DNA from: Cystobasidiomycetes sp. EMM_F5 | Taxonomy: Eukaryota | Direction of reading: 5' to 3' | DNA: 64,000 bases | Assembly: GCA_051047955.1 (NCBI GenBank) | Contig: JBPGPT010000014.1 | Span: 186,001 to 250,000, forward strand | Shown here: positions 50,168 through 52,855 of the stretch, piece by piece | How positions within the stretch are numbered: position 1 is the stretch's first letter | Layout: the number at the start of each line of letters is the position of its first letter | The notes under the pieces: generated by a model | Databases searched by the model: none | What the model was told of the DNA's origin: nothing | The model's input: the letters and a program-made list of their open reading frames with translations, nothing else | Made by a program: the position numbers and the translations under genes

Positions 50168-51093
50168 GGTTCACGTGAATATCATTTATTATCAGGATGA
50201 GGGTTGGTTTCAAAGGCAAACGTGGGCGGTTGTTGCTTTTTCGGTAACGCCGCGCCTCAAATTGGACAAGCCAACTGCATCCCCTTGACATGCACAAACA
50301 GCAGAATTAAGCAAGGTATACTGAAGAAAATACGAGACAGCGTAACATAATCATAGCGTAACACAATCACATTTGTAATGGCCGATACTGTATATACATA
50401 TATATAACGAGCGGTGGGAAACGGAATGACATAGAAAGTAAGCCAGAATCTGCAGGAGGCTTGCACTACCGCATGGCCTTTATTATCTCTCTCTGTGTCC
50501 CTGGGATGGCCGCCGCCGTCCTCGCAGAAACAAAGCCTGAGAAGGTGAACCACCTGTTGAGCGAATACTGCATCGGCACAGGTCGCTTCACCATGCTGTA
50601 AAAGCCATCACATCATCAAGAGGCTCCACACGTTCATCCCTTTCTGCATTGCATTTGTAGGAACGTAGAAGAGGCCTTGACTTCCCGCTGCCAGTGGTGT
50701 GTTCGAACTGCGCAAATCGCAGGAATGGAAGCAAAGGGCGAAGCAGATGAGATACCCGCACAAACTCAAGCTGAGATGTTTAAGAGAAGAGGAATTGGAT
50801 GTTGGGTTGTCCCAGAAAAGATCTCATTTTGTAACGAGATGGTCAGCTGCAGCCCGCCCCACAGGACTGGTGCTCGGGGTAGGTAAAGAGTCGGAGCCAC
50901 CTCAGCCGGATATCCTGATAAGCAGAGTACAATGACCATCTACTATGTGCACGGTCCTCTCGAAAGGGCCCGAGGAGAAATTCTTCCCTCCAAATTTTTC
51001 CGGCAAAGGAAGTTTGGGGGGACGAAAGAGAGCCCTTCTGCCTATCCTCGGAGCCACGTCCAGTCCATACCGCAAACGACACGCTCAAGCACA

Positions 51094-52855
51094 ATGGTCA
51101 GTCCACTTACGCACGACACCCACCCGTAGTCGACGCCAAGTCATCCGCCTGTCCGCGACTTCGACCCGAAAATGCCAGCATAAAATGCACTCGGTGCCCT
51201 GTGCAAATACCGTTCAAGCTTCGATAATGCCGGCAGCAGTCATCATGTCTCTCTGCATAGACAGATACGGGCGTCGTTCCTGAGGGGCGGAGCAACGGGA
51301 GATGCCATGCAATTGGTTCTTTCGCGACGCTTGCTGAGGGGAATCGACCTTAATGTGAAACGAGGGAGAGGTTCGAAGCCTGATGTCGGTATTGCGAAAG
51401 CAGTATTCGGCAGTATGATGGCATAGAACCCACTTAGAGCATCAAGAAAGGATAGTTGTGTGTGCATCTTCCCGTTGCTTGCGCTTCTTTCAAGAAACGT
51501 ATGCATCGGGCCTCATCTCATTGTCACCAATGGGTGGAGGTATAGATCACTGCTATGGTGTACGAAGCAAGGAAGCGGATCTGTATCTGCTGCACTGGGA
51601 GGCACTTTGTGTCGTGGCTCGGGAAGAATGGTCGGACGGCGAAAGCTTGGTTGGCTGCGGGATGGGCGTCGGCTCACATAACGAGGCTTAGTTGCTTCGC
51701 ATCGTGCCATGCCTTGTCTATCCTGTTGCTGACGAGTGCTTCGTCTCTGCCTCTCTTTTCTCCAATTACCCAACCTTCTGCACCACTATCTGCTCCATGA
51801 ACCCCATTTCTGCAACGACGCCTGTCTTTGCGACCATCTTTTCCACTACCTCTGCTACTGATATACAGGCACCAGCAAAGAAGACCGCAAAAGCTCCAGC
51901 CCTCGGCAAAAAGCCAGTCAAGAAGACGACAAACCCATTGTTCGAGAAGAAGCCAAAGAACTTTGCTATTGGTAAGAGCAGACCTTGAAATCATGTATGC
52001 GAGTACTCACGATACCTTGCTTTCCGCAGGCCAGGACATTCAGCCCACTCGCGACTTGACCCGCTTCGTCAAGTGGCCAGAGTATGTCCGCCTTCAACGC
52101 CAGAAGGTAATCCTCAACCAGCGCCTCAAGGTACCGCCCGCCATTGCCCAATTCTCGTCAACTCTAGACAAGAATACCGCCACCCAACTTTTCCGTCTCC
52201 TCAACAAGTACAAGCCAGAGACCAAACAAGAGAAGAAGACTCGGCTTGGCAAAGAGGCTGAGGCTATCGCTGCCAACGATGGTAAGAAGCCAGAAAAGAG
52301 CGAGAAGAAGCCTCTGTTCGTCAAGATGGGTCTCAACCACTGCGTTGCCTTGATCGAGGTCGGTTTGAAAGACAGCAGTTTCAAGGGGAGGTACATCGGA
52401 CTGATTCGTTCGCTTCTCCAAAACAGAACAAGAAGGCCAACCTCGTTATCATTGCCGATGATGTTGACCCAATTGAGCTCGTCGTCTTTGTGCCCGCTTT
52501 GTGCCGCAAGATGGGCGTCCCTTACGTGATTGTCAAGAACAAGGCTCGTCTCGGTACGGTAGTACACAAGAAGAAGGCTGCAATCCTGACCCTGCAAGAC
52601 GTTCGCTCTGAGGATTCGTCCGAGCTCTCCAAGCTCGTTTCCGCTGCCAAAGCCAACTACTTAGACAAGTTTGAAGACCATCGCAAGCATTGGGGAGGCG
52701 GAATCCGGGGGAATAAATCGAAATCTATGATGCTTAGGCGTGCAAAGGCAGCGGGTATGTTGTCATTGCGCTCCACAATTGTCGTTTCGTTTGTCTTGAT
52801 TTTCTGACTTTTCGACTTTTCAGGTACCACGGTGGCCGCGCTCGAGAAGATCTAA
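51094..52855 (+). CDS. RPL8: 60S ribosomal protein eL8 (L7a/L8)
   Basis: [33 protein letters not shown]-like [16 protein letters not shown]; start inferred as CACA-ATG|gtcagt with intron 51097-51868 (start less certain than identity). Confidence 0.93.
51255..51745 (+). ncRNA. Putative structured intronic RNA element with kink-turn-like motif in RPL8 intron 1
   Basis: Nested complementary segments with sense-strand G-U pairs, GAAA tetraloop hairpin, GCCTGA/GATGGC motif; read by eye, family not recognised. Confidence 0.6.

Follow-up and report, generated by a model that had tools for sequence, protein, structure and literature searches.

The window analysed here is a 64,000-nt stretch of DNA from Cystobasidiomycetes sp. 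EMM_F5 (GenBank assembly GCA_051047955.1, contig JBPGPT010000014.1, positions 186,001 to 250,000 of the forward strand), and all coordinates refer to positions within it. The + strand at 51094-52855 carries the gene for ribosomal protein eL8 (RPL8/Rpl8 in yeast, L7a in human), and the first intron of this gene features a conserved RNA structure that overlaps the splice signals of the intron itself. On balance, we read this structure as a splicing-control element, probably autoregulatory, in an expanded, zipper-folded eL8 intron. We lean to the same modest degree toward the view that the intron of the window is a lineage-specific stretched version of an element that distant fungi keep at the 3' end of the same intron.

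The gene begins with an ATG-only coding exon (51094..51096), the last three bases of exon 1, which was assigned by sequence reading and by comparison with relatives. It is followed by intron 1 (51097..51868, 772 nt, GTCAGT...CAG), whose assignment draws on the sequence, on acceptor use, and on its minimum free energy (MFE) fold. The donor side reads CACAATG followed by GTCAGT at 51094-51102, and on the acceptor side CTGATATACAG is followed by GCACCAGCAAAG at 51868/51869. Exon 2 (51869..51971), placed by the sequence and by a contig joint at 51971/52030, encodes the eL8 N-terminus minus Met, and Met joined to APAKK... across the intron-1 junction is the N-terminus of the relatives (MAPAKK/MPPKK), all of whose eL8 proteins contain Pfam domain PF01248. 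With a GT donor, an AG acceptor, a branch-point-like CTRAY, and a junction that restores the conserved N-terminus, intron 1 has the features of a spliceosomal GT-AG intron; a U12-type intron was rejected, the donor being GTCAGT. The remaining introns are located at 51972-52029 (58 nt), 52359-52426 (68 nt), and 52755-52823 (69 nt), the first two confirmed as contig joints and the third taken from sequence reading, so that intron 1, with its 772 nt, exceeds the others in length by a factor of 11-13. The initial annotation had proposed an oversized first intron after an ATG-only exon, and this intron is real: its acceptor is used, relatives are spliced from ATG to exon 2, and the other introns measure 58-69 nt.

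Acceptor use was read from an error-free contig of sequencing run X2 (record 7), in which 51868-51970 is joined to 52029-52141 without intron 2. The contig carries 14 extra letters 5' of 51868, none of which match intron 1, and because these letters lie off the intron the acceptor at 51868 is in use; run X2 is RNA by guess only, though the contig lacks intron 2. Among the sequencing runs on record, none labelled RNA carries this stretch, and there are seven weak matches with shares of 0.05-0.10. Contigs were taken from four of these seven runs, where 50800-51604 is uncovered and uninformative. Run X1 contains one error-free 217-nt contig that covers solely 51605-51821 of intron 1, and the run may be DNA; its contigs that match eL8 exons all derive from other organisms. 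Intron 1 of the window holds 17 ATGs, and the reading frame of a transcript that retains the intron meets a stop after 11 codons.

The conserved element was defined by comparison with other fungi. Metagenome contigs were scanned with the exon-3 peptide, which gave 80 loci, and a CUCNAUGA-type motif (CUC-N-AUGA) is present upstream of exon 2 in 67 of them. The other 13 loci comprise nine contigs spliced at intron 1 and four that end short of the motif position. In the compact form of the element this motif is 30-103 nt from a UAGAG motif, and across 44 distinct aligned compact-form sequences UAGAG, CU, and AUGA are invariant (44/44), while CUC keeps its second C in 43 of 44. The usual element occupies ~70-90 nt at the 3' end of intron 1, and in most loci the 3' splice site falls 2-8 nt past the second motif (e.g., CUCAAUGACCAG followed by CC). 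The first helix (H1), GAG/CUC, is the closing helix of the local MFE hairpin in 12 of the 14 sequences folded; for the remaining two, constraining the fold adds 0.1 and 2.1 kcal/mol. Beyond a small internal loop lies a second helix (H2), the 3' strand of which begins at or beside the branch-point consensus, GCUGAC or GCUAAY. H2 reads CGAGG/CYUCG in most loci, CGGGG/CCCCG in L043, CGACG/CGUCG in L040, and GGUUUUG/CAAAAUC in L044.

Covariation of H1 and H2 was scored on a MAFFT alignment made without fitting to the structure. The two helices are paired in 89.7% of cells, compared with 37-55% when the partners are slid, and they contain 12 compensatory cells versus 3.5 ± 1.6 in shuffles (0/500); four of the five H2 pairs change on both sides. 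A covariance model built from the alignment, R1, matches this position only, in 32 loci, and in 278,491 bases of flanks and window it revealed nothing convincing outside the expected eL8 intron-1 position. As a conserved RNA structure, the element lies within an intron of the gene itself and overlaps the splice signals there. One locus departs from the usual layout: at L010:126-205 the invariant motifs close a mismatch-free 18-bp helix and GCTGAC is located downstream, not upstream, of the second motif. The conserved intron end has also left a mark in two gene models, P0023 (Heliocybe sulcata) and P0032 (Mycena olivaceomarginata), which feature long N-terminal extensions ending ...RLNDQ before PPK/PKAK. 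RLNDQ is the in-frame translation of the conserved intron end, as in many relatives (CGU CUC AAU GAC CAG), and this translation suggests that the ATG-only first exon was overlooked in the annotation of both.

The exon-3 peptide of the window has nameless proteins as its closest matches (90-91%), and its best named fungal matches are from Basidiomycota (78-83%). The proteins of element-bearing loci are closest to those of Malassezia restricta (96% identity), Puccinia triticina (91-93%), Ceratobasidium (96%), Testicularia (92%), Kwoniella (85-89%), and Pleurotus (87-90%), and that of one locus, L050, to Pyronema (94-95%). Based on these closest named proteins, the element is found in Ascomycota as well as Basidiomycota.

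The contigs of the relatives, which may be RNA or DNA, show intron 1 in both spliced and intron-containing forms. L001 and L002, in which exon 3 has 84% nucleotide identity to the window, start 17 nt before ATG followed by GTTAGT and continue through a 626-nt intron 1 into contiguous exons 2-4. The ATG is joined directly to exon 2 in L003, L009, and L013, and the donor context of ATG followed by GT is found in L001, L012, L017, L018, L016, L027, L049, L053, and L064. The intron measures 626 nt in L001, 544 nt in L017, 372 nt in L012, and about 130 nt in L018. Four pairs (L003/L004, L009/L008, L013/L012, and L047/L046) have the same exon 2 both spliced to the ATG and preceded by the intron, and every contig in these pairs lacks intron 2; a contig was called retained on the basis of a matched spliced partner together with the absence of intron 2. 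Of the contigs that lack intron 2, 42 extend to the first bases of exon 2; nine of these are spliced at intron 1 and 33 retain intron-1 sequence.

In the clade of the window the two halves of the element are far apart. No intron similarity between the window and its relatives was found by blastn at E 1e-3, and a global MAFFT alignment of the long introns gave nothing informative outside one short block, block B. Short-word blastn between the window and L001 revealed two clearly conserved blocks, with all other matches at E >= 8. Block A (51433..51456, + strand, CTTAGAGCATCAAGAAAGGATAGT) is identical in L001 at 22 of 24 positions (E 5e-5) and contains the invariant UAGAG at 51435-51439. Block B (51785..51801, + strand, ACTATCTGCTCCATGAA) contains the invariant CUC-N-AUGA at 51793-51800, lies within a matching region at 51773-51805 (E 1.5e-4), and is complementary to block A; the window, L001, L004, L005, L007, and L008 share its 15-nt core, CTATCTGCTCCATGA, without a difference. 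The complementarity amounts to 11 bp, GAUAGU/ACUAUC plus GAGCA/UGCUC, with nine unpaired bases in block A. UAGAG and CUC are separated by 358 nt in the window and by 244 nt in L001, and the block B motif of the window is 66 nt from the 3' splice site. Block B also contains an ATG, at 51797, that is in frame with exon 2 in the window alone, where it is open for 24 codons (51797-51868). Its position within the conserved motif of the intron, together with its being out of frame in both L001 and L004, led to its rejection as the true start. Block B was likewise rejected as the branch point, as in most relatives it is 2-3 nt from the AG.

The branch-point-like site of the window, GCTGAC (51728..51733, + strand), was located by a CTRAY scan. 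Its branch A is at 51732, 136 nt from the 3' splice site, and it is the sole CTRAY within 220 nt of the 3' end of the intron besides one that is 7 nt from the AG. The corresponding distance from the branch-point-like A to the 3' end is 121-143 nt in L001, L004, L007, and L008. The site is followed by a CU-rich tail of 132 nt (51737..51868, + strand) that is free of AG up to the 3' splice site in which it ends, where 2.7 AG are expected from composition. AG-free tails of 128-154 nt occur in all six clade members, versus 2.7-3.4 AG expected, with the tail of L005 bounded by its contig. This feature is only suggestive because the six clade members are related.

Folding calculations indicate that intron 1 is structured beyond chance and that this structure is specific to the sense strand. 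The sense strand of the whole intron folds at -291.6 kcal/mol versus -252.7 ± 7.3 kcal/mol for shuffled sequences (z -5.31; 0/20 shuffles as low), and the antisense strand gives a z of -0.31 with 8/20 shuffles as low. Because C is abundant in the 5' part and G makes up 40% of 51582-51678, shuffling was also confined to 97-nt blocks, which preserves regional composition, and the z is then -7.0 (0/169). The domain at 51285-51485 has a z of -6.68 on the sense strand (0/200 shuffles) and -3.76 on the antisense strand. The expectation of the initial annotation that the intron would fold better than shuffled controls is borne out on the sense strand (z -5.3, and -7.0 block-wise) with an antisense z of -0.3. 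A DNA palindrome or a transposon is disfavoured by the strand asymmetry together with the finding that intron 1 contains no exact inverted repeats longer than 10 nt.

The central domain (51291..51479, + strand) is a long stem that closes a three-way junction, and its 3' strand includes block A. The MFE helices are 51290-51300/51470-51480, 51301-05/51464-68, 51306-15/51453-62, and 51317-23/51446-52, followed by 51334-38/51433-37 and 51339-41/51429-31 and by hairpins at 51344-51376 and 51378-51422. All four nested pairings and both hairpins read from the sequence beforehand are recovered in this fold. Two further stems noted there, GGTATAGATC/GATCTGTATC and GAGGCACTT/GAGTGCTTC, are indeed complementary, but the MFE does not use them and pairs these segments with the 5' arm of a larger structure. 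That structure is a predicted giant imperfect hairpin, a zipper, in which a C-rich 5' arm (51114..51244, + strand) pairs with a G-rich 3' arm (51545..51671, + strand), both arms being defined by MFE pairing and per-block composition. The arms are ~130 nt each and enclose about 300-430 nt, including the central domain, and GCTGAC at 51728-51733 and the CU-rich tail are left mostly unpaired in the MFE. A zipper is predicted in both the window and L001, each with a significant z. One inverted repeat, 51262-51283/51809-51830 (22 nt, 77% complementary, with a perfect 9-bp core GGCGUCGUU/AACGACGCC), is unused in the MFE; it could link the foot of the central domain with the stretch that runs from block B to the 3' splice site.

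The zipper fold and the conserved helix would compete, since the central domain sequesters the UAGAG half. Block A is paired there with 51306-51341, and the helices between blocks A and B are excluded because the domain occupies block A. In L001 it is another upstream segment (96-109) that masks block A, and nothing corresponds to the three-way junction. Conservation of the structured domain therefore holds for the block on its 3' strand and fails for the junction, and the energy models suggest that masking of block A may be common to the window and L001 though the domain itself is not conserved. When the A-B helices are forced in the window, the G-rich arm (51596-51668) is predicted to pair with the CU-rich tail (51715-51772), not with the 5' arm. 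The forced fold would pair 51650-55 with the branch-point-like GCUGAC at 51728-33, a second possible way to hide the branch point. In a third lineage, at L017:57-600, the 12 nt whose last bases are the invariant CUC are complementary to GAGCAGAGAGAG, a segment close to the intron's 5' end, and the MFE uses this pairing; the UAGAG pairing is modelled at only 0.7 kcal/mol above the MFE, so a two-state arrangement is possible there.

From the intron, its structure, the covarying element, and the contig forms we infer regulation, its direction, and the kind of factor that would bind. With the hairpin formed and a protein holding it, the branch point and the 3' splice site would be masked and intron 1 would be retained, and the retained transcript would be unproductive. 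By analogy with known systems, the simplest regulator would be eL8 itself in excess. Insertions in the clade of the window would account for the 358 nt between the two halves and for the 136 nt that separate the branch-point-like site from the 3' splice site. The zipper would then place the 5' splice site at a short distance from the region of the branch point and render a 772-nt intron spliceable in a gene whose other introns are ~60 nt. The cis-regulatory role in splicing suggested by the initial annotation fits the location of the conserved elements, which are inside the intron at its splice signals.

Several observations weigh against this reading. The zipper consists of energy models of two full-length sequences, and the L017 intron folds without strand asymmetry (z -2.56 and -2.30). 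Forcing the A-B helices costs 29.5 kcal/mol relative to the MFE in the window, 18.5 in L001, and 0.7 in L017, so by the energy model these helices would rarely form in the window. Cognate duplexes differ only weakly from non-cognate ones, with means of -11.4 and -9.3 kcal/mol, and the cognate duplex ranks 12th of 16 for both the window and L017 (the coordinate used for the window was off by one base). Covariance model R1 matches neither the window nor its clade. The pairs of spliced and intron-keeping contigs come from relatives, with none from the organism of the window; the relatives' contigs may be RNA or DNA, the matched pairs being the firm part. The X2 contig shows the acceptor side of intron 1. 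Finally, if the element is the same as the rpl7-l8-s3 motif discussed below, its occurrence in L7 and S3 introns would fit a shared regulator better than strict autoregulation.

The same observations can be read without feedback. The fold may be a constitutive splicing aid that shortens the distance from the 5' splice site to the branch point, with the hairpin serving as a constitutive presentation of the splice site, and we regard this as unlikely but the most credible of the other explanations. The predicted zipper encloses about 300-430 nt and has a block-shuffle z of -7.0, the branch-point-like site and the tail are unpaired in the MFE, and zipper stems are established in yeast introns (PMC12350175, PMC12311795). 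However, a constitutive aid leaves unexplained why 5 plus 7-8 bases are invariant from basidiomycetes to a Pezizales-like ascomycete in the intron of one gene, as well as why 33 of 42 intron-2-less contigs, be they RNA or DNA, contain intron-1 sequence, and a hairpin that pairs the branch-point region would be expected to hinder its recognition. It is improbable, though less so than the explanations that follow, that the element binds another factor, such as Snu13 or another L7Ae-family protein, a small nuclear ribonucleoprotein (snRNP), or a splicing factor, and responds to something besides the level of eL8. The loop flanking the helix resembles a kink-turn (k-turn); intronic K-loop RNAs bound by 15.5K are described in a 2026 preprint as suppressing excision of their host introns (10.64898/2026.08.03.742641); and the rpl7-l8-s3 motif is reported in L7, L8, and S3 introns (PMC5640933). 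R1, on the other hand, found nothing convincing outside eL8 intron 1 in the bases searched, and the motif has been likened to the element by description only.

The initial annotation also offered a hosted noncoding RNA (ncRNA) and a poison exon, and neither fared well. An intron that hosts a stable ncRNA, a small nucleolar RNA (snoRNA) or other, which is processed out would agree with the strong sense-strand structure and with the X1 contig that spans only 51605-51821, from a run that may be DNA. We give this little credence, as the Rfam 15 check that had been recommended returned no match to a known family, either for the window at gathering score or for 50900-52100 at E <= 10; blocks A and B apart, the intron shares no clearly conserved sequence with L001 despite 84% exon identity, the two blocks of 24 and ~17 nt being parts of the splice-site hairpin element; and most relatives have either an intron that is too short or the element as a hairpin of 70-90 nt that holds the branch point. 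For a snoRNA of the box C/D or H/ACA type in particular, no Rfam family and no conserved block besides A and B were found, and a box C/D-like reading of the hairpin at 51378-51422 was dropped as this hairpin is unconserved in L001. Still less probable is a poison cassette exon at ~51261-51498 that sends the mRNA to nonsense-mediated decay (NMD). An AG at 51260 and a GT at 51499 do bracket the central domain, but both sites, though present in the sequence, are unconserved in L001, and no contig of a relative features an internal cassette exon, the alternative forms retaining the intron or its 3' part. Equally slight is the chance that the blocks act as DNA, whether as an enhancer within the intron or as a promoter internal to the CT-rich tail, with an incidental RNA fold. 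The CT-rich tail, contigs L004, L005, and L008 that begin inside the intron, and the in-frame ATG at 51797 in the window would suit such a role; the compensatory changes and many G-U pairs in H2 and the strand-asymmetric folding point to RNA, the block B ATG is out of frame in L001 and L004, and L001 and L002 span exon 1 through the whole intron.

A more specific version of the autoregulatory reading concerns the k-turn resemblance. The flanks of the element feature a helix ending in C-G, a bulge N-A-U, and then G and A facing A and U. As in the canonical helix of a k-turn, GAG/CUC is paired in 44/44 sequences (one with G-U), it is extended by the covarying H2, and it is followed by a 3-nt bulge, the first base of which is A in 39, G in 4, and C in 3 of 46 sequences. 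G1b, A2b, and A1n are invariant, and 2n is U in all sequences. According to one study, A.U at 2b.2n occurs in Kt-23 and the same change abolishes the folding of Kt-7 (PMC2790904). Beyond the G.A and A.U pairs, the 46 sequences show no consistent pairing in the non-canonical helix; in about 11 of the 46, GGC and GCC form an offset pairing of 3 bp in which the splice-site G takes part, and the window has none. The element was not filed as a k-turn because the helix expected next is unsupported. It is a tentative and rather doubtful proposal that eL8, which has the L7Ae fold, binds a Kt-23-like k-turn of UA-GAG and CUC-NAU-GA in its own intron 1, a feedback that would predate the split of basidiomycetes and ascomycetes and that would have become a long-range switch in the clade of the window. 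In this switch, strands 358 nt apart would compete with the zipper that makes the 772-nt intron spliceable.

To our knowledge, ribosomal-protein feedback through structures in the protein's own intron is known almost only from budding yeast. The element described here turned up in loci that resemble members of each of the three basidiomycete subphyla, as well as in a Pezizales-like ascomycete, with invariant bases at the branch point and the 3' splice site, and if it is a control element it would be among the oldest known splicing-control RNAs of eukaryotes. The interest of the element rests on this age, on its exact placement on the splice signals, and on the L7Ae fold of eL8. The window adds a case of tenfold intron growth in which the halves of the element are conserved, the intervening sequence drifts, and a strong competing fold appears. 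Members of the L7Ae family autoregulate through kink-turns, among them that of the yeast L30 pre-mRNA, which PMC5640933 cites as L32. In archaea L7Ae controls its own mRNA via a k-turn in the 5' leader (PMC6298567). The eL8 element is similar to these systems in the L7Ae fold of the protein and in a loop with a C-G-ended helix, a 3-nt bulge, and an adjacent G.A pair; it differs in that 2n is U and not G, in that the non-canonical helix is unsupported, and in that binding is putative.

The closest described RNA is rpl7-l8-s3, a candidate structured RNA found mostly in introns of L7, L8, and S3 genes in 25 species (Li and Breaker 2017, PMC5640933). It is described as one or more long hairpins with internal loops and a conserved purine-rich stretch, likened to the binding site in yeast L32 pre-mRNA, and its function was untested there (PMC5640933). 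Like the element of the window, it is located in an intron of a fungal L8 gene. The two differ in that rpl7-l8-s3 has two hairpins and is also present in L7 and S3 introns, and in that those species read from its list are ascomycetes only, whereas the element here is mainly basidiomycete-like with one Pyronema-like locus. The motif probably overlaps the element, the two being compared by description only. A literature search returned PMC5640933 as the sole paper on rpl7-l8-s3 and nothing about an intron element of eL8/RPL8 from basidiomycetes; an L8 structure is likewise absent from the list of Gao et al. (2021).

The arrangement in the window has a parallel in intron 1 of yeast RPL7B, in which a zipper stem aids splicing and a mutually exclusive conserved structure, bound by Rpl7, represses it (Granas et al. 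2025, PMC12311795). There the protein is uL30, the sequence is different, and the mechanism is experimental, whereas here it is proposed from comparison and folding; a further difference is that the element here takes in the branch point and the region of the 3' splice site. In long yeast introns, zipper stems pair the region after the 5' splice site with that before the branch point (Rangan et al. 2025, PMC12350175). The same placement of long-range pairing is predicted in the intron of the window. The predicted arms of ~130 nt, in a gene with other introns of ~60 nt, set it apart from the yeast stems. The element of the window is probably an unusually expanded new example of the ribosomal-protein intron control elements.

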